Sequence record: SRR20825019_2588
Reading direction: 5' to 3' (one strand)
Length of the DNA: 20,000 nt
Shown piece after piece: positions 2,473-20,000 of this stretch. A program made the translations under genes and the position numbers. The stretch's first letter is position 1. Each line of letters starts with the position of its first letter. The notes under the pieces are model-generated. The model saw only the letters and a program-made list of their open reading frames with translations. It was not told the DNA's origin and did not search any database.

Positions 2473-3267
2473 ATGTTGATGCTAGCTTGGTCACTCATTA
2501 CTGTATTGGTTTTGCTGTGGGTGTCGATTCGTATTTATAGAAAAAGCAAATCGCCGAAACTCAAAGTCAGTCCCAGAAAAATGCTGATGGATAAGCTGGT
2601 GTGGGATTTTAAATCGCAGTTAGAGCGTGCGGTTGGTGAAGATTATGATGTTTATCCGCATATACGGCTGGCGGATCTGCTGGTGATAGACCCGGACAAG
2701 GATAAAAAAGCCCGGCAAATCCAGTCACGGATTGAAGCGACGTCAACCGATCTGGTTCTGACTGAAAAAGCGACCGGAAAAATCGCCTGTGTGCTGATTC
2801 TGATTCATCAGGAAAAACTGGGTAGCAGACAACAGTTCATTCGTCAGATATGTAAGCAGGGCAAGTTGCCATTTCAGATATTTGATGTCAATAATGCCTT
2901 CAGCGACAAACAAATTCGCCAGGAAATCACCTTGTTGCTGGAACCGACGATAAGACTGGATGAAAGCCCCAGCCATGATATCAAGGTCTATCTTGACCCG
3001 GTACAGGCGCAGCAGACAAGGAATAAAGTCGAATCGCAGTTGCCGGAGATGCAGGATAAAAAACAAAAGTCCGATACACACCCGGGAGAACAACAGAAAA
3101 CGCACATTGCCGAGCCAGAGCAAAAAGCGCAATATCATAAAGCGAAAAAAGCCGAGCCCGATCTGGTCGGGGGAAGTTATAAAAAGCATGAGGCAGAGCC
3201 GAAGCTGCGTGAGCAATCTCATAAAAAGCAAGAAGCCGAGCCGGAGTTTGATTTATCTGTCGACTGA
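2473..3267 (+). CDS. Membrane-anchored DUF2726-like protein with a repetitive charged C-terminal tail
   Basis: N-terminal TM helix. VYPHIRLADLL, DLVL and ICKQGKLP segments resemble DUF2726. RBS GAGGAG; starts 19 nt after the amrS stop. Confidence 0.65.
   Translation: MLMLAWSLITVLVLLWVSIRIYRKSKSPKLKVSPRKMLMDKLVWDFKSQLERAVGEDYDVYPHIRLADLLVIDPDKDKKARQIQSRIEATSTDLVLTEKATGKIACVLILIHQEKLGSRQQFIRQICKQGKLPFQIFDVNNAFSDKQIRQEITLLLEPTIRLDESPSHDIKVYLDPVQAQQTRNKVESQLPEMQDKKQKSDTHPGEQQKTHIAEPEQKAQYHKAKKAEPDLVGGSYKKHEAEPKLREQSHKKQEAEPEFDLSVD
3109..3264 (+). repeat. Degenerate 42-bp (14-aa) tandem repeat inside the DUF2726-like CDS
   Basis: GCN GAG CCN (Ala-Glu-Pro) starts at 3109, 3151, 3193 and 3235. Units: AEPEQKAQYHKAKK / AEPDLVGGSYKKHE / AEPKLREQSHKKQE / AEPEFDLSVD. 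Confidence 0.8.
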
Positions 3268-3285
3268 CAAGGACCTATTGAGATC

Positions 3286-3705
3286 ATGACGAATCCACAA
3301 TCCAGGGTAAAACTTCTTAAACCAAGCCAGGTCAATGCCTGTAAACAACTGGCAGAGTCTCAACTTAACGACAACAAGCGCGCTGCTGCGCTGCTCGCCA
3401 TTCACCAGGGCCAAACCCATGCACAGGCCGCCGAATCCAGTAGTCTTAGCATTGGTCAGGTCAAATATATTGTTACCCGATTTCGTAAACTGGGAATGAA
3501 GGCCCTGCATGTCTTGCAGGAAAGCCCTGACAATGCTGTCGAAACAGCGGTTGAAGCACCAGTGACCAAAGCCCGAAAGAAAAAAGACAAAGCAGATAAA
3601 AAAGCCAAGAAAGCAAAGAAAATCAAAAATAAAGAGAAAAAAACTAAGAAAAAAGATAAAAGCGATAAAAAAAAGAATAAGAAAAAGCTTAAGAACAAAA
3701 AATAA
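3286..3705 (+). CDS. Helix-turn-helix protein with a lysine-rich C-terminal tail
   Basis: RAAALLAIHQGQTHAQAAESSSLSIGQVKYIVTRFRKLGMKAL resembles a homeodomain-like HTH (IS630 N-terminus type). 28 of the last 45 residues are Lys. Confidence 0.7.
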   Translation: MTNPQSRVKLLKPSQVNACKQLAESQLNDNKRAAALLAIHQGQTHAQAAESSSLSIGQVKYIVTRFRKLGMKALHVLQESPDNAVETAVEAPVTKARKKKDKADKKAKKAKKIKNKEKKTKKKDKSDKKKNKKKLKNKK

Positions 3706-6454: not shown

Positions 6455-8038
6455 ATGAAGAAAAACTTACCCGTTACTGACAACGAAGTCACATTTGAAG
6501 AAGAACTCATTTCCACCACCGATCTGAAAGGTGCCATCACCGGATTTAATTCGGCGTTTGAGGATGTCAGTGGTTTTCCGGGCGATGAAATGCTTGGAAA
6601 AAACCACAATGTGATCCGTCATCCGGATATGCCACCGGCGGCCTTTGAAGACTTGTGGGATACCATCAAGGCTAAAGACCATTGGATGGGTATCGTCAAA
6701 AACCGCAGTAAGAACGGTGATTATTACTGGGTTGATGCCTATGTGACCCCGATTTTCAACGGTCAGCAAATCGTCGGTTATGAATCAGTGCGTATCAAGC
6801 CCAAAGCGGAATACGTTAAAAGGGCACAAACGCTTTACCAGCAAATCAATGCGGGCAAAAAGCCCCGGCTAGGTAGTTTCTTGAACCGCTTCGGGTTGAA
6901 GCATAAAAATGCGTTAAGCATGGGTGCTGTCGTTGTGCTGACCATGATAGCGACCCAACTGGATATGGTTAAGGCATTACCGTTTTTCTTACCCATGATC
7001 ATTCCATTACTGGTCGGTGCGGCAACCTACGGCCTTTTGACCAAATGGGTATTTGCCAGTCTGGACCGTGCATTGAAAGAAGCCCGTAAAGAAGTCGACA
7101 ATCCCTTGATGACCATGGTCTATACCGGTAACAACGATGAAATTGGCCAATTGACGCTGGTGAATAAACTGACTCAGGCTAAACTGAACACGGTGTTGGT
7201 AAGATTGAGAGATACGGCAACAAAAATCGACTCAGAAGCGCAGGACACTTTCAGTTCGCAACAGTCCATCATGGAGTCGATTCAGTCACAGGCATCCCAG
7301 ACAGACCAGGTTGCCACAGCAATGACAGAGATGACCTCAAGCATTCAGGAAGTCTCCAATAATGCCAGCAGAGCCGCGTCTACGGCATCAGAAGTGGATG
7401 ACCTGACAAAAGCCAGTGAGCGTAAAGCCTCAACGGCGGTCAGCAGCCTGGGTTCACTGGATGCTGCTTTTAGTGATATCAATAGCATTATTAGCGAACT
7501 GGAAGACGATTCCAGCGCGATTAATCCGATTATCGGTGTCATCAGTGATATTGCTGAGCAGACTAATTTACTGGCGTTGAACGCCGCCATCGAGGCAGCA
7601 CGGGCAGGGGAGTATGGGCGGGGCTTTGCCGTAGTGGCAGATGAGGTCCGCTCATTGGCAAGCCGAACCCAACAATCTACGCAGGAGATTTCAACACTTA
7701 TCCAGAAGCTGGATCAGGCGGTGGATAAGGTTGTTTCCGGGATGAAAAAGACACAGGAAACAGCCTCATCAAGCCGCGAAGATATTTCCGCATCGATTAG
7801 CTCTGTGTCCAGTATTAAGGATAAGGTTCAGGAACTGAATGATCTCAATACACTGATAGCGACTGCGGTTGAGGAGCAGAGTGCCGTCAGTGATGATATA
7901 AACCGCAATGTGGTACAGATCAGTAGTGAGGCTGAAAGCGTCGTATCCAATGCCAATCTGGTCAATACCAATGCGGAAAACCTCGCTGAAGAGTCATCCG
8001 CTTTGTTAAATATGATTCGGCGTTTCAGCCAGTCATAA
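6455..8038 (+). CDS. aer: Aer-type PAS-domain methyl-accepting chemotaxis (aerotaxis/energy taxis) receptor
   Basis: N-terminal PAS with [10 protein letters not shown] and [12 protein letters not shown], hydrophobic membrane anchor, and MCP signalling core [37 protein letters not shown]. Confidence 0.9.
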
Positions 8039-8050
8039 GTCTATAAAAAT

Positions 8051-8088
8051 AAAAAGGGGCTGAGACTTAGAAGTCTCAGCCCCTTTTT
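8051..8088. terminator. Bidirectional rho-independent terminator
   Basis: AAAAAGGGGCTGAGACTT-AG-AAGTCTCAGCCCCTTTTT is a perfect inverted repeat with A/T tails, between two convergent genes. Confidence 0.92.
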
Positions 8089-8100
8089 TAGGTTTCAATC

Positions 8101-8409
8101 TCAGCAGTTGCCTTTTTTGGCTTGTCCCGGCGGGCAGAAATGACCACCATGATGATCATCAATATAGACTTTACCGTGATGATTGTCATTACGATGCCCA
8201 TCTTCATCTGTATTGACTGCGACACCCGCAGCTGCACCGACAGCACCGCCAATCATGGCACCGTCCTTACCGCCAACTTCATTACCTACAGCCGCACCGA
8301 TGGCACCACCGATTCCGCCGCCGACAGCCGCGTCCAGTGTGGATGAGTCATCAGCCATAATCGGTGCTGAAAATAGACCCAAACTAAATAAAATCATCAT
8401 GAGCTTCAT
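8101..8409 (-). CDS. Small secreted glycine-zipper protein with a His-rich segment and a CPPGQAKKGNC C-terminus
   Basis: ATG at 8409 after a GGAGGT RBS (preferred over the ORF-track start at 8424). Signal peptide MKLMMILFSLGLFSAPIMA and GGGIGGAIGAAVG...GGAVGAAAG glycine zipper. Confidence 0.8.
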   Translation of the reverse strand: MKLMMILFSLGLFSAPIMADDSSTLDAAVGGGIGGAIGAAVGNEVGGKDGAMIGGAVGAAAGVAVNTDEDGHRNDNHHGKVYIDDHHGGHFCPPGQAKKGNC

Positions 8410-8529
8410 ACGAATTACCTCCACGTTAATGCTTTGAACTATGACAGTTTCAGCAAGCTAAGTCTGTGATGACTTTCAGATCACAAGCAAAGTGCTACCT
8501 AGAAGAGTTCTTTTTCAAACTTCAGGCAC

Positions 8530-8564
8530 AAAAAAAGCAGTTATCGCAAGGCGAATAACTACTT
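8530..8564 (-). terminator. Rho-independent terminator immediately downstream of the tRNA remnant
   Basis: Minus strand reads AAGTAGTTATTCGC-CTT-GCGATAACTGC-TTTTTTT: a hairpin with one bulge and one G-U pair, followed by a U tract. Confidence 0.7.
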
Positions 8565-8579
8565 AATTATATTTACTTT

Positions 8580-8614
8580 GGGAGGATTCAAACCTCTGAT
8601 CGCAAGGTTCCTAG
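8580..8614 (-). pseudogene. Degenerate 3' half of tRNA-Arg(ACG-type), probable att-site remnant
   Basis: Minus strand CTAGGAACCTTGCGATCAGAGGTTTGAATCCTCCC matches the E. coli tRNA-Arg(ACG) segment CTACGAACCGAGCGGTCGGAGGTTCGAATCCTCCC (recalled from memory) at 29/35. It covers the anticodon loop, variable loop and T arm. There is no D arm, no 5' half and no CCA. Confidence 0.7.
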
Positions 8615-8703
8615 AATCGTAGTTAATTTTCAAATAACTAACTATATCATGTGGTTACCATTGTATAACTTAACATTAAAAGTCATGGTTTTTACGAAAG
8701 AAA

Positions 8704-8723
8704 TAGTACTGAGATTAGTACTG
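8704..8723 (+). repeat. TAGTACTG direct repeat with 12-bp period (candidate integrase arm-type sites or operator)
   Basis: TAGTACTG at 8704-8711 and at 8716-8723, about 90 bp from the tRNA remnant. Confidence 0.5.
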
Positions 8724-8887
8724 TGCTATTCATACTGGCTCCTTCGAGCTTGATCAATGTCCATAGTTTAGTCAACGTTTAAGAATGAGCTTATATAAAC
8801 TTTCTTATTTTATATGGTGATATGCATATATTGTTAAGTTAATATATATGTTTTGACTATACAAGTGCTCACCAACGGGATTAAATA

Positions 8888-9427
8888 ATGATGACATTGT
8901 ATCTGGATCCAGAGGGACCGCTGATTACAGACATTGTGAGCCGACATCACAAAAAGTTAGTCATGATAGCTGCGAGAATTGTTGGGCATATTTATGCGGA
9001 AGAGGTAGTCCAAGATACTTGGCTTACCCTACTTCACGGATCAACACTGACTAAAGAGATTCATTCAATAGAAGCATGGCTATATAAAGTCGTCGTCAAT
9101 AAATCGATTAACAGGAAAAAAAGAGAGCAAAGAGCAGAGTCGTTGAATCATAACATTTTATACCCGGACAGAGCTCAGAGCAGTGATTCTGAAATTGCTG
9201 ACTTTGAGACAATGCCAGAAAACATTCTCTCATTGCTCCAGACCATTCAAAGCCTAGAGCAGGCATGGTTATCGCTCCCTGAAACCCAGAAGAAAGCAGC
9301 AGAAATGAGCTTCAGTAGAAATCTGAGTAACGAACAAATTGCATTGAACTTGGGTATCAGTCAATCAAATAGCAAAGTATCTATTCATAGGGCTAAGTCT
9401 AAACTGATAAACGCAGTAGCTAACTGA
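8888..9427 (+). CDS. ECF-type RNA polymerase sigma-70 factor
   Basis: Region 2 (AEEVVQDTW...IEAWLYKVVVNKSIN) and region 4 (LPETQK...SNEQIALNLGISQSNSKVSIHRAKSKL); 179 aa. Confidence 0.9.
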   Translation: MMTLYLDPEGPLITDIVSRHHKKLVMIAARIVGHIYAEEVVQDTWLTLLHGSTLTKEIHSIEAWLYKVVVNKSINRKKREQRAESLNHNILYPDRAQSSDSEIADFETMPENILSLLQTIQSLEQAWLSLPETQKKAAEMSFSRNLSNEQIALNLGISQSNSKVSIHRAKSKLINAVAN

Positions 9428-9449: not shown

Positions 9450-11186
9450 TTAATGATTTGCTTTGGCAAAAGTTTCTACAGCATCTTTGGTCTGAAAAAA
9501 TACACGACCAGGTAGAAGCTCTTTGAAAAAATCTATTTTATCCAGCTTATCAAGGACTGGACCTTTGACTTCTGCCAGATTGAGTGAAATTCCTTTCCCT
9601 CTGAGGTCGTTGATCAACTGTTTCAAATAATTAATAGCGGTTGTATCAATGTAGCTTACGGATGAAAAAATAAGAACCACATGTTTTGCAGTGCTACGAC
9701 GTGACTCCCTTTCAATAAATTCTGAAATGTAATTTATATTTGCAAAGGTGATATTTTCATCGATTCTAATGAACAGTAGATCTTTCCATGTTTCGACACG
9801 ATGTCTTTTCACATTGCGAAAATGGTCGGTGTTTTTGATCCTGCCAACAACGGCAATATGCGGTCGACCAGCTCTTCTTAAGTAACAAAATATTGTTACT
9901 ACAACACCAAGTATGATGCCTTCTTCAATGCCTAATACCAAAACGCCAACGAGCGTGAGAATCTGACTGGCACCATCTGCTTTATCCTCTCTCCACACTG
10001 AGACTAATTTTCTGAATTCAATAAGTGGTAAGACTGCCAGGATGATAATGGCAGCTAAAATAGCTTTTGGAATGACTTCCAGAGTCTCACTGATGGTAAC
10101 CACAACAAAGGCAATGATGACCACAGCGATAAGCATGGCAACTTGACTTTGAGCGCCTGCAGAGTGGTTAACCATCGTGCGGCTAAATCCACCCGCAACA
10201 GGCATGCCTCCGGATATTGATGAGGCGATGTTGGCTGAACCAAGAGCGATAAGCTCCTGATTTGGCTTTATTTTTTCATTTCTTGTCGTGGCAATAACTT
10301 TTGCAATAGCGACACTTTCCACATAGGCGATAAGGCTGATAAAAAAAGCACTCGGAAACAGTGCATAAAGGTGTGATAGAGATACATTTAAAAAACTCAA
10401 ATCAATACTGGGTAATCCCTTTGGAATTGAACCCACTACGGCGACGTTATACTTACTGTCCAATGCGAAAATACTGACTAAGATTATCCCAAGAATTACT
10501 GAAATTAAGGGGGCTGATTTACTGATTCCAGTCCTGATTGATTTATTTATGCCTCTTTTCAACAGTAGATTGACTAGCGGTTTTCCCATAACAGCGACAG
10601 TGACAATGGCCAAGAGTCCAAGCCACATTTCATAACTATTGAAGCTTGCATATGAATGTTGAAGACAGGAAAAAGCATCGTCACAGGTGCCGACATGTAT
10701 GCCTAAGATACTTGGCAGTTGACTCCAGACAATAATGATAGCCGCACCTGAAGTAAAGCCAGAAAGCACAGGCTGACTGATATAGTGGACCAAGCTTCCC
10801 ATCTTGAAGGCAGACATGACACAGAGAATCAGTCCTCCTTCAAACGCGAGTAACATGGCGTTTTGTACTGGAGAGCCGAGTGCCATTATTTCAGGTGAAG
10901 ATAAAGCACTTGCAACCATAATAGCGGCTATTGAAACCGGCCCGACCGAGAGTATTCTGCTCGTTCCGAATAATGCATACATCACTGCGGGTAGAAGACT
11001 TGTATAGATCCCCACTTCTACCGGTAATCCTGCAAGTAATGCGTATGCCATTCCTTGAGGTATCAAAAGAATGGCAGTGATTATGCCTGCAAAAATATCA
11101 CTATTAAAAAGCTGCCAGTTATAAGAACTCAATGATTCTCTAAGGGGGACACTGGTCATCAATTTAATAAAAGAATTTTTTAACAT
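9450..11186 (-). CDS. sulP: SulP/SLC26 family anion transporter with C-terminal STAS domain
   Basis: DIFAGIITAILLIPQGMAYALLAGLP, GGFSRT, NQELIALG and STAS motifs (IRIDENITFAN, VSYIDTT). Confidence 0.93.
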   Translation of the reverse strand: MLKNSFIKLMTSVPLRESLSSYNWQLFNSDIFAGIITAILLIPQGMAYALLAGLPVEVGIYTSLLPAVMYALFGTSRILSVGPVSIAAIMVASALSSPEIMALGSPVQNAMLLAFEGGLILCVMSAFKMGSLVHYISQPVLSGFTSGAAIIIVWSQLPSILGIHVGTCDDAFSCLQHSYASFNSYEMWLGLLAIVTVAVMGKPLVNLLLKRGINKSIRTGISKSAPLISVILGIILVSIFALDSKYNVAVVGSIPKGLPSIDLSFLNVSLSHLYALFPSAFFISLIAYVESVAIAKVIATTRNEKIKPNQELIALGSANIASSISGGMPVAGGFSRTMVNHSAGAQSQVAMLIAVVIIAFVVVTISETLEVIPKAILAAIIILAVLPLIEFRKLVSVWREDKADGASQILTLVGVLVLGIEEGIILGVVVTIFCYLRRAGRPHIAVVGRIKNTDHFRNVKRHRVETWKDLLFIRIDENITFANINYISEFIERESRRSTAKHVVLIFSSVSYIDTTAINYLKQLINDLRGKGISLNLAEVKGPVLDKLDKIDFFKELLPGRVFFQTKDAVETFAKANH

Positions 11187-11253
11187 AGACTCATGTCTGA
11201 AATAGGGTTGTGAGGTTTACACAAAGGTCAGACCTGGGTTGAGAGTCCAAATC

Positions 11254-11272
11254 ATAACCAGAATATGGTTAT
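11254..11272. promoter_or_regulatory. Inverted repeat upstream of sulP (candidate regulator binding site)
   Basis: ATAACCA-GAATA-TGGTTAT, a perfect 7-5-7 inverted repeat in the very AT-rich 129-nt sqr-sulP gap. Confidence 0.45.
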
Positions 11273-11315
11273 ATTTTAATATACAAAATAAGTATATGTA
11301 TATATTTATATCAGA

Positions 11316-12569
11316 TTATGAGTCCAGGAATTTTTCAGCATAACTTGCTTTACTGGGTAGATCTATGCGACGTGCCTTGAGCATGATTTTCCAGTAAAGG
11401 AAAGGTAGCCCATAACGTTTAAACAGCATCCAAACGCGTCTATTTTTTCTGGGGTCCAGATAAGGAAAGGAGGGGGTGACCTCACCGCCATAGGAGAACT
11501 CTGCCATCATGACTGTGGAGCGGGAAGTCGTAAGCGGGCATGAACCATAACCTTTATAACTGGCTACAATATCGCGAGTGTTTATCAAATGCAGAAGATT
11601 ATTGACTAAAATCGGCACCTGTTTTCTGACAGCGGCAGCAGTCTTGGCGTTGGCTGTACCAATGACATCTCCAATGCCAAAGATATTGGGATAGACCTTA
11701 TGTTGTAATGTCCCTTGGTCAACACTCAACCAACCCGCATCGTCACTTAATGGACTCGTTTTGATGAAATTGGGTGCGCTCTGAGGGGGCGTCACATGAA
11801 TCATATCGAAATGTTTGGTCATGGTTGAGGATTCACCTTTCTCATCTTTCTTTTCGAAGACGGCTGTTTTTGAAGCCCCATTTATTTCAATTAAATTCCA
11901 GCCATAGTTGGTCTGAATTCCATACTTATCAATAACTTTTTCGAGCTCTTTAGCAAAAAAAGGCACGCCAAAAATAGCTGGGCCCGCATTGAAGAATTCA
12001 ATATCGATCTTCGACAAGATGCCTTTTTCCCGAAAATAATCAGCCGCTAAATACATGGCTTTCTGTGGAGCACCGGCACACTTGATTGGCATAGGTGGCT
12101 GTGTAAAAAGCGCTCTTGATCCAGCGGGTAGTTTTTTAGTTGTTTCCCAAGTGTATTCAACATGTTCGGGAGAATAGTTACAACAAACACCGTTTTTACC
12201 GAGTGTCTCAGAAAGGCCTTTAATTTTGTTTATATCAAGTTGTAAGCCGGGGCAAACAACCAGGTAGTCATAAGAGAGCTCACAGCCAGTATTGAGATAA
12301 ACCATATTGTCTTCTGGGTGAAACTCAACGGCATAATGTTTGAACCAGGTGACACTAGGAGGAATCAGCTTTTCTTCTTTTTTTTCTGTATTTTTAAACT
12401 TGAACAGCCCTGCGCCAACCAATGTAAATGCGGGTTGGTAATAATGTTTCGAAGAGGGTTCTATCAGGGCTACTGTTTGGCTGGGATCCATTTTCGCCAA
12501 GTCGTTCGCAACTGATATGCCTGCTGCACCCCCTCCGACGATAATCACGTTGTAATGACTATTTTTCAT
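11316..12569 (-). CDS. sqr: Sulfide:quinone oxidoreductase, type II (SqrB/SQOR-like)
   Basis: GGGAAG FAD-binding motif, HYYQPAFTLVG, catalytic Cys motifs PIKCAGAPQK and YGSCPL, AKTAAAVRKQ, AEFSY. Start set at ATG 12569 after the GGAGAG RBS. Confidence 0.92.
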   Translation of the reverse strand: MKNSHYNVIIVGGGAAGISVANDLAKMDPSQTVALIEPSSKHYYQPAFTLVGAGLFKFKNTEKKEEKLIPPSVTWFKHYAVEFHPEDNMVYLNTGCELSYDYLVVCPGLQLDINKIKGLSETLGKNGVCCNYSPEHVEYTWETTKKLPAGSRALFTQPPMPIKCAGAPQKAMYLAADYFREKGILSKIDIEFFNAGPAIFGVPFFAKELEKVIDKYGIQTNYGWNLIEINGASKTAVFEKKDEKGESSTMTKHFDMIHVTPPQSAPNFIKTSPLSDDAGWLSVDQGTLQHKVYPNIFGIGDVIGTANAKTAAAVRKQVPILVNNLLHLINTRDIVASYKGYGSCPLTTSRSTVMMAEFSYGGEVTPSFPYLDPRKNRRVWMLFKRYGLPFLYWKIMLKARRIDLPSKASYAEKFLDS

Positions 12570-12597
12570 TTTCTCTCTCCGGGCTTTGATTATCTTT

Positions 12598-12999
12598 TTA
12601 ATTTGATAGGGCTTTCCAGGCTTCATATCCACCTGCCATGGACATGATGTTGCTGAATCCCATATGTTGAAGGCTTGCTGCAGCTAATGCTGATCGACCA
12701 CCCGAGCGGCAATACAAAATAATCTTGGTGTCAGGGTTGTTTACTTCTTGCAGATCAGAAATTTTGAACTCCAGTACACCTCTGGGAATTAACTTTGCCC
12801 CCGTGATTGAACCTTGCTCAACCTCACTCTCTTCTCGAATATCAATCAAGACTACATCGTCGTTTTGAACCAATTCTTTGGTCTCCTCCGGACTGATTTC
12901 AGTAATTTGAGGTTTGACCTGCGCAACCAGTTGTGGGGCTGTCAAACGTTCTTTTGATTGTGATTCATTGTCTGTATTGTCGTTGTGAATGCTATTCAT
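12598..12999 (-). CDS. Single-domain rhodanese (sulfurtransferase)
   Basis: LIDIRE, YCRSGGRS active-site loop, MAGGYEAW. Start set at ATG 12999 after the GGAGAG RBS. Confidence 0.92.
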   Translation of the reverse strand: MNSIHNDNTDNESQSKERLTAPQLVAQVKPQITEISPEETKELVQNDDVVLIDIREESEVEQGSITGAKLIPRGVLEFKISDLQEVNNPDTKIILYCRSGGRSALAAASLQHMGFSNIMSMAGGYEAWKALSN

Positions 13000-13377
13000 T
13001 TCTCTCTCCAAGTCATACTTATATTGTTAATTTGACAGTGTTTTCCAGGCTTCATAGCCACCGGCCATGGACATCACATTCTTGAAACCCATATTCTGAA
13101 GGCTCGCTGCAGCCAGGGCTGAACGACCACCGGAACGGCAATACAAGATGAGCTTTGTATCGGGGTTATCTATTGCATCCAGATCTGAGATCTTGAATTC
13201 CAGCACGCCTCTGGGGATGAATTCAGCGCCTGAGATTGAACCCTGCTCGACTTCACTTTCTTCTCGAATATCAATTAAAACGACGTCCTGGTTCTGAATT
13301 AATTTACTTGTTTCTTCAGGGCTTATTTCAGTGATTTGGGGTTTGGTTTGCGCCACAATTTGAGGTGCAGTCAAACG
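12598..13377 (-). repeat. Tandem duplication of the rhodanese domain (13027-13377 and 12598-12948)
   Basis: Ungapped alignment from RLTAPQ to the stop codon gives 98/116 identical residues by hand count. Confidence 0.9.
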
Positions 13378-14115
13378 CTGTTGTGATTTCGCTACGTCTC
13401 TGGGTTCGGAAGACTGGAAGGTTTCTTCTTCATCTACACCACAGTATCGGTTGGCGGGAACCGCTATATCAATAAGCTTGGGTTTAGGTAAATTGAGATT
13501 ATCCATCAATTCAATGAACTCCTCTCTCGATTTACCAGCTAATCTCGGATTGATCCTTTTTTCCTGCCCGATACTGCTGACGCTGTGACCTTTATAGTCA
13601 TGTCCCGGAAAGACAAGTGTCTCGTCTGGCAGGCTAAATAAACGTTGTGTAATGCTGTCGTAAAGTGTTCCCGCATCGCCTCCCTGGAAATCTGTTCTTC
13701 CGCAGCCATTGATCAGTAAAGCATCACCAGTAAAAACTTTATCTCGCCAATGAAAGCTCATGCTTCCTTTGGTGTGACCTGGAGTCGCGATAGCGGTGAT
13801 TGTTTCCTTGTCTCCAAGATGGAATGCATCATGATCATGAATTTGTTTATCTGCATTTTTCGCTTCACAAGCGTGACCTACACCTGTTTGGCAACCCAGT
13901 TGCTGCCTGAGAATGCCACTGGCCGTTATATGATCTGCATGGACGTGTGTTTCCAGTGAATACTTAAGATTGAGTCCGTATTCGTCCAGAATCGTCTTAT
14001 AAATTTCAATCTGACTTTTAACTGGATCTATCAAAGCGGTCTCACGAGAGGAGGTGTCAGCAATCAGATAAGTGTAGGTGCTACTCTCATCGTCGAACAT
14101 TTGTTTGAAGAGCAT
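13027..14115 (-). CDS. pdo: Persulfide dioxygenase (ETHE1-like MBL fold) fused to a C-terminal rhodanese
   Basis: SSTYTYL, ETHVHADHIT, TPGHT, GCGRTDFQ, PGHDY and VPANRYCG motifs, followed by a rhodanese domain with CRSGGRS. Confidence 0.93.
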   Translation of the reverse strand: MLFKQMFDDESSTYTYLIADTSSRETALIDPVKSQIEIYKTILDEYGLNLKYSLETHVHADHITASGILRQQLGCQTGVGHACEAKNADKQIHDHDAFHLGDKETITAIATPGHTKGSMSFHWRDKVFTGDALLINGCGRTDFQGGDAGTLYDSITQRLFSLPDETLVFPGHDYKGHSVSSIGQEKRINPRLAGKSREEFIELMDNLNLPKPKLIDIAVPANRYCGVDEEETFQSSEPRDVAKSQQRLTAPQIVAQTKPQITEISPEETSKLIQNQDVVLIDIREESEVEQGSISGAEFIPRGVLEFKISDLDAIDNPDTKLILYCRSGGRSALAAASLQNMGFKNVMSMAGGYEAWKTLSN

Positions 14116-14139
14116 GGCGCTTTTCCTAATAGTCAGTGT

Positions 14140-14637
14140 TTAAAAATTGCCCGAGTTTGGCATCAGAGCATTCATTTCATCTACGTCCCATGATTTTGCC
14201 CCAATGGCCCTGTGAGTTATATTTCCCTCAGGATCAACCAGGTAGCTTATAGGGAGGGCTCTTACATCCCAGTTTTTCAGGCTGGTATCAGGATCGCTCA
14301 CGATGGGAAAGGTGATGCCAAACTTCTTCACGAACGCCGCAGCCTCTTCGGTGTAAGGTCCTGCATGAATACCAATGATTTCCAGATCCGTATTGATGTT
14401 TTCATACAGTTCCTGCATTTCTGGAAATTCCTTGATGCAGGGTGAGCACCAGTACGCCCAAAAGTTGACCAGGACGTACTTACCTTTGAAATCGCTCAGA
14501 CTTAAGTTTTCACCAGCCGGTGTATCAAGAGTAAAGTCATTGGCTGACCTGACCGGGGTTAGGGGTGACATCAAGTCATCCGCGTTTGCAGTAAAACATG
14601 ACGTAATCAATAGTGTTGAGAGAATAAATTTCAGCAT
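14140..14637 (-). CDS. Exported TlpA/ResA-family thiol-disulfide oxidoreductase
   Basis: Signal peptide, LVNFWAYWCSPCIKEFP (CxxC) and ALPISYLVDPEG (cis-Pro loop). The start overlaps the upstream stop (TAATG). Confidence 0.9.
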   Translation of the reverse strand: MLKFILSTLLITSCFTANADDLMSPLTPVRSANDFTLDTPAGENLSLSDFKGKYVLVNFWAYWCSPCIKEFPEMQELYENINTDLEIIGIHAGPYTEEAAAFVKKFGITFPIVSDPDTSLKNWDVRALPISYLVDPEGNITHRAIGAKSWDVDEMNALMPNSGNF

Positions 14638-16655
14638 TATTTTGTATCCTGTTGTTCTTTGGAATAGTCACCAATTGGCGTAGCAAACGAATCAGAAATG
14701 ATTTCAGCTACATTGTCACCATTTAGTGATTTCAAAAACTCGACCAGATCTTCTACTTCAATGGGAGATAGGTTAAGCGGATTGATAAGTTCAGACTGCG
14801 TTTCATTTTCGAAACCACCCTCGTTGTAAAAGTCGACAACTTCCTCCAGGCTGGCTAATGAACCGTCATGCATATAGGGCGCTGTCAGAGCTACATTACG
14901 CAGGGTAGGGGTGCGGTACTTCCACCTGTCATCAGGGTCTTGCGTAATTTCGTAGAGTCCTAAGTCTCCAAGTGGTTGGTGGCCCACAGAGTCAATGATT
15001 TCTTTTTTCACGTTGAGGTACCGACCGGGGGCAACCTGAACCCTGGTTTTTTCGGGTTCTTTCTTCATAGCGCGGTGCCAGCCTATCCCTGTGTTATGAA
15101 GGCTATTATCGGTAAAGAGTGAATGGTCACTGGCTACGGTGTGACAGTTGATGCACTGCGCTTTACCGGTAAATAGTTCGAAGCCACGAACAGCAGAATC
15201 GGACATGACCTCTTTTTCATTACCAAAATGCCAGCGATCAAATTTAGAGTTACCAGAAACAAGCGTTCTTTCATAGGATGCAATCGCAGCTGGGATCGTC
15301 TCTATACCAGCCTCTTTGCCATCGAATGCTTCTTCAAACAATCCCGCATAATCATTTAAAGCTTTGATTTTTTCGATGACAGAAGAGAAAGATGGATTTG
15401 CCATCTCATTGCTTGCAAGCATGGGTTGCCATACTTGAAGTTCTAAAGAGGTTTCACGGCCGTCATGAAAAACTTTCTCCAGATAGGCAGAGTTATAGAT
15501 AGTTGGTGCGTTTCTACGAACCGAACGTCCCTCAAATCCTACGGCAGTTTGGAGCTCATGATTAGTAAAGCCTTGTTCTGGTACATGACACATTGCACAT
15601 GACTGCGTGTTGTTGAGTGACAGCCTGCGGTCAAAAAAAAGCTTCTTACCTAATTGAACTTTGGCCTCACTGATAGGGTTATCTTCAGGGATCGGTACGG
15701 GGGGTAAACCCAGAGGCGGGTTCTCAACGAAACGAAGTAAATTAGTCTCTTTACCTTCGCGACTTTTCAGGCTTAGTGAGCTTGTAATATAGTCCTTGCT
15801 TTCGTAACCAGCTTTAGAGTCACCAGCACCAATTCTGATGTTCTGGGAATGATGGCTTTCTTTAGCACTTTTTTCATTGACACCATATTCCATCATGAGT
15901 GTTTTTAAGTCATTAATGATGATGTCTGGATGGAGAAAGTCCACGCTGTAGATATTACGTATTCTCAGATCGGGATCGATGAGAAATACACGCAATATAT
16001 GCGAGAAATTTCCCGTCATTCTGGTATCAGCGTCTGTTTTGGTAATGACAGACTGATTATAAGCGTCCAGGATTGGAGCCAACTCCTTTTCTGAGCGAGT
16101 GGTTAGATATTTCCAATCGACTGTTTTGGAATCTTTGTCATGATGCATGTTGTGATCACCATGATTCATATCATGGCCATCATGATTTGAATGATCCATG
16201 TGTTGATCATGTACACCGCTTTCCAGTTTTTTTAAAACTTCAGGCGTGTCGTAGTTCGGATCAAAACTCATACTAATCATTTGGAGGTTTTCAGCTAATA
16301 CGGGATCTTGTTTAGCAATATCTCTGATTCTGCTGAAAACAATATGTGATAACGGGCAGCCGTTTAAATCATCACATCGGGTGTACATAAAATTCAGCAG
16401 GGTATATTTCCCCCTCAAAATTTCATGATAGGAAACTGGCTCACTCTGAGTGTTGATTGCTTTGGCATTTTTGGCATAGCCCAATACGGGTAGCTTATAG
16501 CTACCCGCATCAGGTGCCTCAAAGTCTAATTCACCATATCCGGGGGCGGGCAATATTGTCTCCGGAATTGGAGGAGCATCAAATGAGAAGACATGACTCG
16601 ATAATAATAAGAAGCTGAAAGATACTATTAGCGAGGTCATATTTTGATGTTTCAT
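14637..16655 (-). CDS. SCO1/SenC copper chaperone - MauG-like diheme cytochrome c fusion (probable MTO maturation protein)
   Basis: Signal peptide. SCO domain (FMYTRCDDLNGCP, SFDPNYDTPEVL, H in FSHILRVFLIDP) with a His/Met-rich insert. Two CxxCH motifs (CAMCH 15585-15599, CINCH 15141-15155), RNAPT, TPTLRNVALTAPYMHDGS. Directly downstream of mtoX. Confidence 0.9.
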   Translation of the reverse strand: MKHQNMTSLIVSFSFLLLSSHVFSFDAPPIPETILPAPGYGELDFEAPDAGSYKLPVLGYAKNAKAINTQSEPVSYHEILRGKYTLLNFMYTRCDDLNGCPLSHIVFSRIRDIAKQDPVLAENLQMISMSFDPNYDTPEVLKKLESGVHDQHMDHSNHDGHDMNHGDHNMHHDKDSKTVDWKYLTTRSEKELAPILDAYNQSVITKTDADTRMTGNFSHILRVFLIDPDLRIRNIYSVDFLHPDIIINDLKTLMMEYGVNEKSAKESHHSQNIRIGAGDSKAGYESKDYITSSLSLKSREGKETNLLRFVENPPLGLPPVPIPEDNPISEAKVQLGKKLFFDRRLSLNNTQSCAMCHVPEQGFTNHELQTAVGFEGRSVRRNAPTIYNSAYLEKVFHDGRETSLELQVWQPMLASNEMANPSFSSVIEKIKALNDYAGLFEEAFDGKEAGIETIPAAIASYERTLVSGNSKFDRWHFGNEKEVMSDSAVRGFELFTGKAQCINCHTVASDHSLFTDNSLHNTGIGWHRAMKKEPEKTRVQVAPGRYLNVKKEIIDSVGHQPLGDLGLYEITQDPDDRWKYRTPTLRNVALTAPYMHDGSLASLEEVVDFYNEGGFENETQSELINPLNLSPIEVEDLVEFLKSLNGDNVAEIISDSFATPIGDYSKEQQDTK

Positions 16656-16683
16656 GATGAATTATCCTTTACCGTTTTAACTT

Positions 16684-18126
16684 CTATAAAGTTTTATCAA
16701 TTGCTTCTAAAGCGTGCTCTTTAATTGCTTCCTTGGCTTTTTCTTCACGGTTGCTAACCGGAACAATCGGCGCTTCTTTACCGTAAAGAGAATATGAACC
16801 AAAACGCATTTGGTGAGCTCTTCCGAGTTTTTCTTTATAGAAATCGATCTTGAATTGTTCTGTCATCGTTTTAGTGTCGCGGTCCCAGTGCATCAATTTC
16901 ATGTACTGAACGTCTTTCTCACCTTTGTGATCCCAATTAGCCAGCAAAGAGCTTGTGTAATACAGTCGAGTGCCATCCCAGCTTGATGAAACCATATTCA
17001 CTTGCTTGTCTATAAATTGCTCATGCATAAGCGTTGGGTTATAGGGATCAGTGATGTCGTAGCCACGAGTCATACCGTCCATAAATGTATTCACCCAAAT
17101 CGTGGAGTCATCACTTGAAATAGAGAAGTCAACCGGCAGCGGAACGTCTGAAGGATTGGCAACAGTGCCAACAACTTCTGCTTTCCAGCCACCTTTACCA
17201 TCTTCAATAATTAAGATGATTTCAGAGGTTAAAGCTGTAATTGTGAAGCAGTAATTATTTTCAGCTCCCCAGGCACATCTGAGTTCAAGAGGTGCACCTT
17301 CAGCATCAAGCACCTGTTTAGGCTTACGTGTATGTAAGTCCCAAACAACAATGGTGTTACCGAAACGTTTCATGGCTTCAGGGTCTTTCAGCATCTTGCC
17401 GAAATCCATCATGTAGTTTGTCCAGCCGGTAAATGATGAGGTGAACATCGCATTACGACGGGGCAAAACCTGGATGTCATAGCCATAACCATCAGCATAT
17501 TGTCCGGTTTTCTCTGCACCTTGGAGGTTGTCATCGGTAGGGATCCAATAGGTATCTACGTACTCACCGTCGTTAGTGTATTCAACCAGTGCAGTTCTAC
17601 CACCATGATCCTGGTTATTAGATAAAGCTGTCCAAAGCATGCGGCCAGGCACTGCATAAGGTGTATGCGGACCAACAACACCACCGGTTTTGCTGACAAA
17701 GTCATCAATCGTTTTTACAAGTTTGGGTTCAGCTGGATTGGTATGAACATCAAATATGAAAATCTTGCTGCTATCCAGACTGCCACCCCAAAGATATTTA
17801 CGGTCATCAGTAAAACCAGAGTGGTGAGCTTCATTTCTGCCACCGACAGATGTAACGTGGCGAACCTTACCGTAATCTTTAGCAGCTGGATTGACCGAGA
17901 CAGTGACCAGTTTATCCTGGCCATCACCAAGTCCCTCCACACCCAATGTCCAGACATAAACAAAATCTTCCTGACCTTGAATTTTTGCCATGTAGGGTGA
18001 CATACAGGTTTCATCGGCATGGACTGCTACGGGGGCTCCTATTATTAGTGCGGCACTAACAAAAACCGGACTTAAGAACTTCAAGACCGGTTTAGTCTTC
18101 ATTTTTATCACTTCATTAAATTTCAT
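16684..18126 (-). CDS. mtoX: Methanethiol oxidase (SBP56/SELENBP1 family), periplasmic
   Basis: Signal peptide then DETCMSPY; EAHH, GPHT and RAHQMRFG His motifs; SSFTGW and SSLLANWD Trp motifs 163 residues apart; linked to an SCO-MauG gene. Start set at ATG 18126 after an AGGAGAG RBS. Confidence 0.93.
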   Translation of the reverse strand: MKFNEVIKMKTKPVLKFLSPVFVSAALIIGAPVAVHADETCMSPYMAKIQGQEDFVYVWTLGVEGLGDGQDKLVTVSVNPAAKDYGKVRHVTSVGGRNEAHHSGFTDDRKYLWGGSLDSSKIFIFDVHTNPAEPKLVKTIDDFVSKTGGVVGPHTPYAVPGRMLWTALSNNQDHGGRTALVEYTNDGEYVDTYWIPTDDNLQGAEKTGQYADGYGYDIQVLPRRNAMFTSSFTGWTNYMMDFGKMLKDPEAMKRFGNTIVVWDLHTRKPKQVLDAEGAPLELRCAWGAENNYCFTITALTSEIILIIEDGKGGWKAEVVGTVANPSDVPLPVDFSISSDDSTIWVNTFMDGMTRGYDITDPYNPTLMHEQFIDKQVNMVSSSWDGTRLYYTSSLLANWDHKGEKDVQYMKLMHWDRDTKTMTEQFKIDFYKEKLGRAHQMRFGSYSLYGKEAPIVPVSNREEKAKEAIKEHALEAIDKTL

Positions 18127-18329
18127 TTTTCTCTCCTGGCTGTAATTACTTACGAAGCCTCTAAAAGTTGAACAACGCATCAATAGAAAAACCTTATTCC
18201 ATTAGTCATTTAAATATTGGCTGCAAATTTATTCATAAACTGCAGGTTACGTTGAAAATGTGGGAACCAGTTCGTTAGCCAAAAATAGAAATTCATCTTC
18301 TAGTTCAACGTGACCATTACGTAAGAATA

Positions 18330-18345
18330 AGGAATAAACGTGCCA
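18330..18345 (-). promoter_or_regulatory. Imperfect sigma54-like promoter facing mtoX
   Basis: Minus strand TGGCACGTTTATTCCT. The -24 element is perfect and the spacing is correct, but -12 reads TTCC instead of TTGC. Confidence 0.3.
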
Positions 18346-18730
18346 AAATTGGCTAAATTAAAACACCTCCATATATTCACCACGTGCATATAGTTATAGC
18401 CCAGTGATATAAAAAAGGCAACTCCTAGGTCTAGAATTTTTTTTAAGTAACATCTCCTCCGTTATGCTCTTTGCTTATAAGGGTTCAAGTGCATGATTCT
18501 ATTATTATTAAAAGGGGTTTAGATGTGTTTTAAAGCTGATGCAGAATTTCTCGGTTGCTAAATTCTTTGGACTGATTTTATAAAAATGATTTGTCGGCGC
18601 ATTGCCCGAAAAGAATATGTTTGATGTTTTTATGGGATAAGTATATAACTATAAAGAATATGTATGTATAAAAAGTGTGCAGAACATTTTTTGTGCAAGG
18701 AATATGAATTCTCCCATCGGAGGAGATTGT

Positions 18731-19705
18731 ATGAAGTTACAGCAAATAAAATATCTTCTGGGTATCGTCAAGAATGACTTGAACGTATCAAAAACGGCGG
18801 AGAGCTTTTATACCTCACAGCCAGGCGTCAGCAGACAAATAAGGCTTTTGGAAGAGGAATTGAAAGTAGAGATCTTTGAAAGGCATGGAAGGTTGCTGAC
18901 AGGTATTACGCCTATCGGAAATAAAATTTTGAAAATGGCTGCTGAGGTCGCGGATACGATAAATAGCATCAAGTCTGTGGCAGAAGAATATGCCAATGAA
19001 ACACACGGTTCATTGGTTATTGCTACGACTCATACACAAGCCCGCTACGTGCTGCCCAAAACAATAATGAGTTTCACCAATAAACATAGTTCTGTCTCGT
19101 TTCATCTGAAACAGGGGAATCCCCATCAAGTTAGTGAAATGGTTTCCAATGGAATAGTCGACTTATCTATTGCCTCAGAGTCAATGCAAGATTTCAGTAA
19201 CCTGGTCACCTTACCCTGTTATTCATGGAATCGGGTTGTGCTGGTCAAGAAAAAGCATCCACTGATAGAGGAACTGCCACTTACTCTCGAAAAATTATCC
19301 AAATACCCTTTGGTTACCTATGAGAGTGGATTTACAGGGCGATATCAATTAGATAAGGCGTTCGAGCTAGCCAGTATCAAGCCTAATATCATGCTCACCG
19401 CTTCAGATGCAGACATCATAAAAGCTTACGTAAAAATGGACTTGGGAGTAGGGGTGATTGCGAGCGTTGCTTATGACCCAAATGATGATGCAGACCTTGT
19501 TGCTGTCGATGCAAGTCACTTGTTTGATAACTGTGTAACAAAAATAGCCCTCAGAAGAGGTGCGGTGCTGAGGGGGTATGTGTATGACTTTATTGAATTA
19601 TTTGCGACACACCTCACAAAAGAGGTCGTTGACTCAATACTGACTACAAATAATTCGACGATATGTTCTGGTTATGTTGATTCATTATCAATACCTCATT
19701 TTTAA
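18731..19705 (+). CDS. cysB: CysB/Cbl-family LysR regulator, divergent from mtoX
   Basis: MKLQQIKY...LNVS...YTSQPGVSRQIRLLEEEL, IATTHTQARYVLP, LPCYSWNR, FTGR, DADIIKAYV. 324 aa from ATG 18731 after a GGAGGAG RBS. Confidence 0.88.
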   Translation: MKLQQIKYLLGIVKNDLNVSKTAESFYTSQPGVSRQIRLLEEELKVEIFERHGRLLTGITPIGNKILKMAAEVADTINSIKSVAEEYANETHGSLVIATTHTQARYVLPKTIMSFTNKHSSVSFHLKQGNPHQVSEMVSNGIVDLSIASESMQDFSNLVTLPCYSWNRVVLVKKKHPLIEELPLTLEKLSKYPLVTYESGFTGRYQLDKAFELASIKPNIMLTASDADIIKAYVKMDLGVGVIASVAYDPNDDADLVAVDASHLFDNCVTKIALRRGAVLRGYVYDFIELFATHLTKEVVDSILTTNNSTICSGYVDSLSIPHF

Positions 19706-19892
19706 GTAAAGTCCCCGGGATTATCGCTGTTTGCTGAACACCTCCCTGCAATAAATTTCGTTTCAATGAGGGGGGGATTACTTCCTGCTTAATCGAGCTG
19801 GTTTGAGCTTCAAGCTTATTTTTACTTGAAATAACAGGTGGCTTCTTTCAAAAACTCCATATTTTTCAAAACTTAAAAAGAGATTAACAACG

Positions 19893-20000
19893 ATGGATGA
19901 AATAGTAACACCCTGTTTAGCCGACATAGGGTTAGTTGGTCTAGCTGTGATGGGTCAGAACCTGGTCCTCAATATGAATGACAAGGGCTTCAGGGTCTCG
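19893..20000 (+). CDS. gnd: 6-phosphogluconate dehydrogenase (decarboxylating), 5' fragment
   Basis: Not in the ORF track. My translation is [36 protein letters not shown], the GLAVMGxNL Rossmann start typical of Gnd. Only 36 codons are visible. Confidence 0.85.

Follow-up and report, generated by a model that had tools for sequence, protein, structure and literature searches.

A tRNA-Arg gene relic at the left edge of a Methylophaga methanethiol oxidation cluster, possibly the scar of an old integration

The 20,000-nucleotide stretch of sequence record SRR20825019_2588 (hereafter the window) carries a methanethiol oxidation (mto) cluster, and the spacer at the left edge of this cluster contains a short sequence that resembles part of a tRNA-Arg gene. 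The named relatives of a PAS-domain methyl-accepting chemotaxis protein (PAS-MCP) encoded in the left part of the window all belong to Methylophaga (88% identity in Methylophaga sp. OBS1), and the host is therefore assigned to this genus. The features on both sides of the spacer and within it are the following.

8101..8424, minus strand: Gly-zipper (YMGG-like) small secreted protein or lipoprotein gene (Pfam PF13441, PF13488; GC content at third codon positions, GC3, of 0.41)
8425..8887, no strand: AT-rich spacer (463 bp, GC about 0.32) separating the Gly-zipper gene from the sigma gene
8530..8564, minus strand: orphan intrinsic-terminator-like hairpin (8564-8535) overlapping a seven-T run (8536-8530)
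8580..8614, minus strand: fragment of a decayed tRNA-Arg(ACG) gene, gene positions 33-67, with 29 of 35 bases as in E. coli argV
8645..8657, plus strand: match to the consensus of integration host factor (IHF) with one mismatch, indistinguishable from chance
8704..8723, plus strand: two TAGTACTG octamers (8704-8711 and 8716-8723), 12 bp apart
8888..9427, plus strand: extracytoplasmic function (ECF)-type sigma factor gene (Pfam Sigma70_r2, r4_2), convergent with sulP
9450..18183, minus strand: mto cluster with mtoX and genes for a SCO1-MauG fusion, a TlpA/AhpC-like thioredoxin, a persulfide dioxygenase-rhodanese, a rhodanese, an SQR-like flavoprotein and SulP (Pfam)
18731..19705, plus strand: LysR-family regulator gene, divergent from mtoX; its product is 69% identical to the regulator of M. 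thiooxydans cluster 2
19893..20000, plus strand: start of gnd (6-phosphogluconate dehydrogenase; 36 codons), with 78% identity over 36 amino acids to the product of L001:7799-9265

The spacer forms the junction between a GC-richer left block, whose last gene is the Gly-zipper gene, and a GC-poorer mto block, in which the conserved mto module has the sigma gene as its outermost member. Since mtoX is followed by sco1/mauG, tlpA-like, pdo, sqr and sulP genes in one direction, this is an mto cluster by gene content. When the junction was compared with 80 related loci, blastn revealed no similarity (best E 1.6). One match to phages (E 0.02, AT-rich) and three to plasmids (E 0.8) were not meaningful.

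In an ungapped alignment to the E. coli K-12 argV/argQ tRNA-Arg(ACG), 29 of the 35 bases of the fragment were identical over gene positions 33-67, a segment that opens with the first anticodon-loop base and closes with the final base of the T stem. Among the six mismatches are those in the anticodon (ACG to AGG), in the T loop (TTCGAA to TTTGAA) and at the first T-stem pair. The altered C of the T loop is an invariant base of tRNAs. Elsewhere in the window, on both strands, the argV fragment probe reached at most 20/35, and no 35-mer from seven other tRNAs scored above 24 against the window. Among 31 distinct E. coli tRNAs, the runner-up for the fragment was Pro(UGG) with 24/35, and the best argV 35-mer score in 60 first-order Markov simulations of the window was 20 to 23. 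No comparable tRNA fragment was detected with 30-mers from tRNA 3' halves in 143 kb from seven Methylophagaceae loci. The T-loop 11-mer by itself is not significant, with a match in 65 of 200 shuffles. The initial annotation had reported a 35-nt tRNA-Arg-like piece beginning at the anticodon loop (8614-8580) and carrying the mutations TTCGAA to TTTGAA and ACG to AGG; the piece was borne out against a simulation maximum of 23, and both mutations are among the six differences.

Standard detectors did not recognise this fragment. ARAGORN called no tRNA in the window, and the Rfam tRNA model (RF00005) gave no match at E<=10 on 8000-9200, on 8566-8616 or on the exact segment 8580-8614, for which truncated matches were permitted. 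Neither program thus found the cloverleaf of a functional tRNA gene. The Rfam result is weak evidence, because a genuine scar, that of the DLP12 cryptic prophage at argU (tRNA-Arg UCU) of E. coli K-12, which served as control, scored only 24.8 bits, below the gathering threshold. Relaxed ARAGORN calls were dismissed as noise: -ps gave none, -ps80 gave two calls that contradict each other, one on either strand (Asp-atc and a 93-nt Phe-gaa), and -ps60 gave seven calls in 600 nt. A decayed full-length tRNA was also rejected, as the identity upstream of the fragment, where the 5' half would lie, is at random level in the alignment.

The hairpin at 8564-8530 begins 16 nt downstream of the tRNA-like piece. 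As predicted by folding, it consists of 13 pairs with one bulge, followed by seven U (-14.1 kcal/mol). With a GC-containing hairpin and a T run, it is a predicted intrinsic terminator, as had been proposed earlier. A simple terminator scan missed it because of the bulge and called only 8088-8051. The nearest upstream gene on the minus strand encodes SulP and has its end at 9450, beyond the intervening plus-strand sigma gene; the terminator is thus an orphan, having no minus-strand gene upstream to serve. Judged from the sequence, the fragment is almost certainly the relic of a tRNA-Arg(ACG) gene together with its terminator.

Between the fragment and the sigma gene lies a non-coding stretch of 273 bp (GC 0.30-0.33), in which the TAGTACTG octamers are located 90-110 bp inside from the fragment. 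Each octamer includes the palindrome AGTACT. The window contains three TAGTACTG copies against 0.26 expected, a number reached in none of 200 shuffles, and the arrangement AGTACT-N6-AGTACT was absent from all 93 loci searched. The pair are candidate protein-binding sites, either arm-type sites of an integrase or the operator of a regulator. Thus, the direct repeat of 12-bp period that had been pointed out before stands as enriched, while the IHF-like site at 8645-8657 does not: one-mismatch matches to WATCAANNNNTTR number 33 in the window against 29.2 expected, and the site is therefore attributed to chance. An inverted repeat, TGTGAT-N9-ATCACA at 8465-8485, lies about 40-60 bp upstream of the start of the Gly-zipper gene and is a possible operator candidate for that gene.

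The sequence had also been described as AT-richer to the right, and this agrees with the best single GC change point, at 8369 (support 8321-8407), where GC falls from 0.494 to 0.416. The GC3 values of the left genes are mostly 0.50-0.57 and those of the right genes mostly 0.37-0.42, a shift of about 0.13; the exceptions are the lysine-rich gene (0.43), the Gly-zipper gene (0.41) and the thioredoxin gene (0.51). The lower GC persists across all 11.4 kb to the right of the fragment. It resembles that of the mto loci of other Methylophaga (0.38-0.42), in which no internal break was seen.

In an MtoX-centred scan of genome contigs, the best locus was that of Methylophaga thiooxydans DMS010 (85% identity). 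The order mtoX-sco1/mauG-tlpA-like-pdo-sqr-sulP is colinear in the Methylophaga loci L001, L002, L017, L024 and L036, and a sigma gene is found at the same end of the cluster in L017 (37% identity) and L024 (41%). The flanks vary among the five other Methylophaga mto loci while the gene order is kept. No remnant of a 295-aa membrane-protein gene, which lies beyond the sigma gene in L024, was found in the window. As for the left block, matches to its eight proteins are encoded in none of the 80 loci, and its genes are unlinked to the mto clusters in M. thiooxydans and across 21 kb of the Methylophaga metagenome-assembled chromosome OZ223249.1 (L017). In M. thiooxydans, the longest contig for the cluster of the ortholog of the left-block radical-SAM enzyme measures 397,852 nt, and the contigs bearing the two mto clusters measure 292,472 and 198,717 nt.

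For the radical-SAM enzyme and the chemotaxis protein, public data contain relatives at 99-100% and at 88-93% identity, including Methylophaga sp. OBS1 for the chemotaxis protein (88%). For MtoX, identity does not exceed 86%, and OBS1 is absent from the 120 best relatives. Compared with M. thiooxydans, MtoX is 85% and the radical-SAM enzyme 76% identical; compared with OZ223249.1, MtoX is 79% and the chemotaxis protein 67% identical. That MtoX, otherwise the better conserved protein, reaches only 86% suggests that the nearest sequenced relatives have no orthologous mtoX. A hint that some contigs carry an identical chemotaxis protein and no near-identical MtoX was not relied on, as the contig bookkeeping looked incomplete. 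In a quick MtoX tree, the window groups with M. thiooxydans cluster 1 and L002 with a support of 97 in the Shimodaira-Hasegawa-like approximate likelihood-ratio test (SH-aLRT), and Methylophaga sp. NORP93 (L036) falls outside the clade of the window and M. thiooxydans. The filter, a best high-scoring segment pair of >=400 aa without stop, dropped six of the 80 loci from this tree (L003, L017, L043, L044, L064, L075). According to the available text of PMC6548844, mtoX occurs in only two of six Methylophaga genomes. The mto cluster is accessory in the genus.

Three observations concern the neighbourhood of the cluster in other loci. A tRNA-Arg(CCG) gene lies at L017:7736-7812, between glycogen phosphorylase and a LysR paralog, 376 nt upstream of the latter and co-directional with mtoX. 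It was rejected as the origin of the window fragment: the match is worse (24/35) and the 3' part of this tRNA is repeated neither in the 13.6 kb downstream nor elsewhere in L017, so that its presence is considered a coincidence. The upstream region of L002 is otherwise syntenic with that of L001, except that it lacks the gnd gene of L001 and the adjacent LysR paralog. About 1.7 kb past the sigma gene of M. thiooxydans mto-cluster 2, a free-standing open reading frame (ORF) of 151 aa (L024:20434-20889) is similar to LAGLIDADG homing endonucleases.

Of the readings considered, the most likely one for the fragment, its terminator and their position is that DNA integrated long ago at the anticodon loop of a tRNA-Arg(ACG) gene and that the mto block lies on the side of the insert. 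This reading is plausible though unproven, and a probability of about 0.45 is assigned to it. It fits a fragment that begins exactly with the anticodon loop, borders the mto module and coincides with the composition break; it also fits the polarity of the fragment, which puts an insert on the right. In such a history, an element with a tyrosine integrase, crossing over in the anticodon loop, would have inserted into the tRNA-Arg(ACG) gene and pushed the original 3' part and the terminator, the one that formerly ended the tRNA transcript, to the distant, left end of the insert. The cargo, or what remains of it, would be the GC-poorer right block, which comprises the sigma gene, the mto cluster, the LysR gene and possibly gnd and DNA beyond it. 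The scar would then have mutated, with the anticodon C35 changed to G, the T-loop C56 changed to T and the first T-stem pair broken; having also had its acceptor strand lost or replaced, it would no longer work as a tRNA or as an attachment (att) site. We infer an integrase as the agent, an intact tRNA-Arg gene beyond position 20,000, the arrival of the mto cluster in that very event and a role of the TAGTACTG repeats as arm-type sites.

Several results weigh against this integration. Although the fragment is present from the anticodon loop on, its similarity ends at the T stem, short of the tRNA 3' end: neither the acceptor 3' strand nor CCA can be recognised, and the 11 nt past the T stem are AT-rich and resemble no acceptor strand. 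The RF00005 search was negative, against 24.8 bits for the DLP12 scar. ARAGORN found no intact tRNA in the window, nor is there a tRNA between the LysR gene and gnd. Pfam revealed no integrase, recombinase, excisionase, transposase or conjugation domain in the 17 window proteins, a search that extends to the 11.4 kb of the block inside the window, and no integrase or transposase was present among 60 flank proteins of L001, L002, L004, L017, L024 and L036. No att-like repeat linking the junction to the spacers at 18184-18730 or 19706-19892 rose above chance k-mer sharing; this search was limited to the window, and the true right end may lie beyond it. Within the window there is thus neither an integrase inside the presumed island nor a direct att repeat. 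None of the seven Methylophagaceae loci carries a tRNA fragment. The nearest known counterparts of the cluster proteins share only 65-85% identity with them, so that there is no close donor. The gnd gene is a neighbour of the cluster in the window as well as in M. thiooxydans cluster 1, where the product of L001:7799-9265 (Pfam 6PGD) is encoded divergently from mtoX, which suggests an old shared synteny on the right side. Finally, the GC3 of 0.41 of the Gly-zipper gene blurs the exact boundary, and a GC content of 40-50% for the genus, as given in the consulted part of PMC6548844, does not fix which side of the window has the native composition.

The initial annotation had proposed that the methanethiol cluster arrived on an integrative element. 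Of this, the tRNA-Arg(ACG) origin, the orphan terminator, the compositional boundary and the polarity are upheld, and the cluster is accessory in the genus, but the window contributes no integrase, intact tRNA or att repeat. A cluster that is syntenic core in its relatives, without a compositional break, had been named as speaking against an island; the flanks were found to differ and the GC break was seen, but gnd is shared with M. thiooxydans. The composition break is clear, and the absence of the cluster from close relatives is suggested by homolog identities.

A rearrangement that was not site-specific appears rather unlikely to us as the cause of the truncation. A resident tRNA-Arg(ACG) gene with its terminator would once have stood downstream of the Gly-zipper gene, and a deletion, or illegitimate or homologous recombination, would have joined the mto block to it, removing the 5' half, damaging the 3' end and regenerating no intact copy at the other end. 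Such an event explains the tRNA match, the terminator and the composition break as well as the missing acceptor strand, the lack of an integrase, a tRNA or a repeat in the window and the lack of element genes near the cluster of relatives. However, a random breakpoint would have to fall by coincidence exactly at the anticodon loop, which is a classical crossover sublocation, and the paired TAGTACTG sites about 100 bp inside also speak against it.

The scar could also stem from a different, earlier prophage or island, now lost by deletion, in which case the mto cluster and gnd would be vertically inherited and unrelated to it. The location of gnd beside mtoX both here and in M. thiooxydans cluster 1, with the MtoX grouping at 97 SH-aLRT in the quick tree, is in line with this possibility, as are the 273 bp of AT-rich (GC 0.30-0.33) non-coding DNA, which a leftover arm would resemble, and cluster proteins that are no nearer than 65-85% to any known donor. 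We nevertheless consider it unlikely, given that the composition break coincides with the scar and persists for 11.4 kb rightward, that the genes of the left block are unlinked to mto in M. thiooxydans and in the 21 kb of OZ223249.1, and that the closest relatives appear to be without an orthologous MtoX.

It is improbable that the locus encodes a live regulatory small RNA on the minus strand, with a T-arm-like or extended hairpin at 8618-8585 and an end at 8564-8530, whose tRNA ancestry would be old or exapted. The 141-nt minus strand folds better than shuffled sequences (z -2.46, two of 200 as good), the fragment itself forms a 12-pair hairpin (-10.2 kcal/mol), and a good terminator follows. 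However, the minus strand shows no upstream sigma-70-like promoter, no Rfam family matched, and the loci compared contain no similar sequence, so that conservation is not demonstrable. In addition, the CGAACC/GGTTCG pairing is already present in the E. coli tRNA-Arg(ACG), and the hairpin is therefore largely inherited.

A chance resemblance in an ordinary divergent promoter spacer, with which the silent tRNA detectors, the chance-level T-loop 11-mer and IHF match and the contradictory relaxed ARAGORN calls on both strands would agree, is close to refuted by 29/35 identities in register against 20-23 in 60 simulations and at most 24 for other tRNA probes and 30 other E. coli tRNAs, and by the lack of a comparable fragment in 143 kb of related loci.

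Returning to the integration into tRNA-Arg(ACG), a wider and more doubtful idea is that the mto module, from the sigma gene to the LysR gene and perhaps gnd, travels within the genus on an element that uses the anticodon loop of this tRNA gene, the window being the sole recognisable att relic and the paired TAGTACTG octamers its arm-type sites. If so, a travelling module would explain the patchy capacity, the two copies in one strain and a donor-like GC3 in a GC-richer host. According to the accessible part of PMC6548844, methanethiol oxidase controls the fate of a key intermediate in the degradation of dimethyl sulfide and dimethylsulfoniopropionate, and only some Methylophaga species carry it. 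Direct physical evidence that the cluster moves horizontally within the genus would come from a datable insertion scar next to it, and tRNA-Arg(ACG) would give a concrete site at which the vehicle could be sought in other genomes. Even if the island interpretation fails, the locus holds a tRNA-gene relic overlooked by standard detectors. Fragments of tRNA genes at island edges are a textbook phenomenon. Known are thus such fragments at island ends (consulted sections of PMC4383910 and PMC9897764) and the mto cluster; the link between both, unproven here, would be new. Literature searches on this point turned up no publication that presents the mto cluster as an island.

The remaining features of the window are listed below.

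Within the left 8.4 kb: genes for AMMECR1, Memo and the AmmeMemoRadiSam radical-SAM enzyme
Within 2473-3705, left block: genes for a DUF2726 protein and a lysine-rich protein
Left block: gene for an SBP-PAS-GGDEF-EAL protein
6455-8038, left block: PAS-MCP gene
8051-8088: perfect inverted repeat of 18 bp with A and T runs on its flanks, located where the PAS-MCP and Gly-zipper genes converge
12598-13011: stand-alone rhodanese gene, copied from the C-terminal rhodanese domain of the fusion gene in the next line
13027-14115: persulfide dioxygenase-rhodanese gene
16684-18183, minus strand: mtoX, probable start at 18126

The tail of the DUF2726 protein is repetitive and rich in Lys and Glu. The ORF that follows (139 aa) has no Pfam match, ends in an extreme C-terminal lysine run and has a GC3 of 0.43, unlike its neighbours. 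The repeat at 8051-8088 is a bidirectional terminator and gives spurious microRNA matches in Rfam. Within the mto cluster, a 429-bp tandem duplication (window 12570-13298; 300 nt at 78% identity) produced the extra rhodanese gene, which seems to be lineage-specific because the query matches only the fused domain in L001, L002, L017, L024 and L036. The longest MtoX ORF begins with TTG, and the closest homologs, of 463-480 aa, cover about 91-96% of it. Because these homologs are shorter, the start is probably the ATG at 18126, which gives a protein of 480 aa with a signal-peptide-like N-terminus; a start-codon issue was likewise raised for MDMS009_211 in the part of PMC6548844 at hand.

Among known systems, the cluster itself is closest to mto-clusters 1 and 2 of M. 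thiooxydans DMS010 (Kroeber and Schaefer 2019; PMC6548844), for which the available text gives the order mtoX, sco1/mauG, tlpA-like, pdo, sqrB and sulP, as in the window. The sigma-70-family gene at the end of the window module corresponds to cluster 2, and the gnd neighbour to cluster 1. The window differs by its extra rhodanese gene and by its left flank, with the Gly-zipper and PAS-MCP genes, and it carries a tRNA fragment whereas neither M. thiooxydans mto locus does. The terms "horizontal" and "genomic island" have 0 occurrences each in that portion of the paper, and islands and transfer are not discussed there.

The DLP12 prophage offers the nearest parallel to the junction. Its target is also a tRNA-Arg gene, both its identity block and its annotation begin within the anticodon loop at position 33 of argU, as the window fragment does in its own tRNA gene, and its displaced 3' fragment lies at the far end of the element. 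The far-end copy of DLP12 retains argU 33-77 with 45/45 identities, including the acceptor strand and CCA, whereas the window copy, scored against the tRNA gene of another organism, reaches 29/35 and extends no further than the T stem. In DLP12, intD directly follows the intact tRNA, whereas the window has neither intact tRNA nor integrase, and the Rfam tRNA model that scored the DLP12 scar gave no score to the window fragment. A 10-mer, TTCTAGGAAC, occurs both at the start of the window fragment (8607-8616) and in the phage-side sequence upstream of the far-end argU fragment of DLP12 (L088:548-557); with an offset of 7 nt relative to the T arm, this sharing is probably a coincidence.

On a larger scale, Islander (Hudson, Lau and Williams; PMC4383910) takes the regenerated tRNA gene (tDNA) and the displaced fragment as the marks of island ends. 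In the part of the paper available, the fragment left behind is a 3' one for 3760 of the 3919 tDNA islands, and an anticodon-centred site is used by 2083. As described there, Islander needs the intact tDNA and the fragment in one replicon together with an integrase, while the window shows the fragment alone. In the accessible text of van der Gulik et al. 2023 (PMC9897764), the fragments are usually low-scoring genes of tRNAscan-SE, whereas that of the window is too decayed and truncated to be called by ARAGORN or Rfam. The same text portrays partial tRNA genes next to integrated DNA as pervasive in prokaryotes, and they are of a kind like that of the window.

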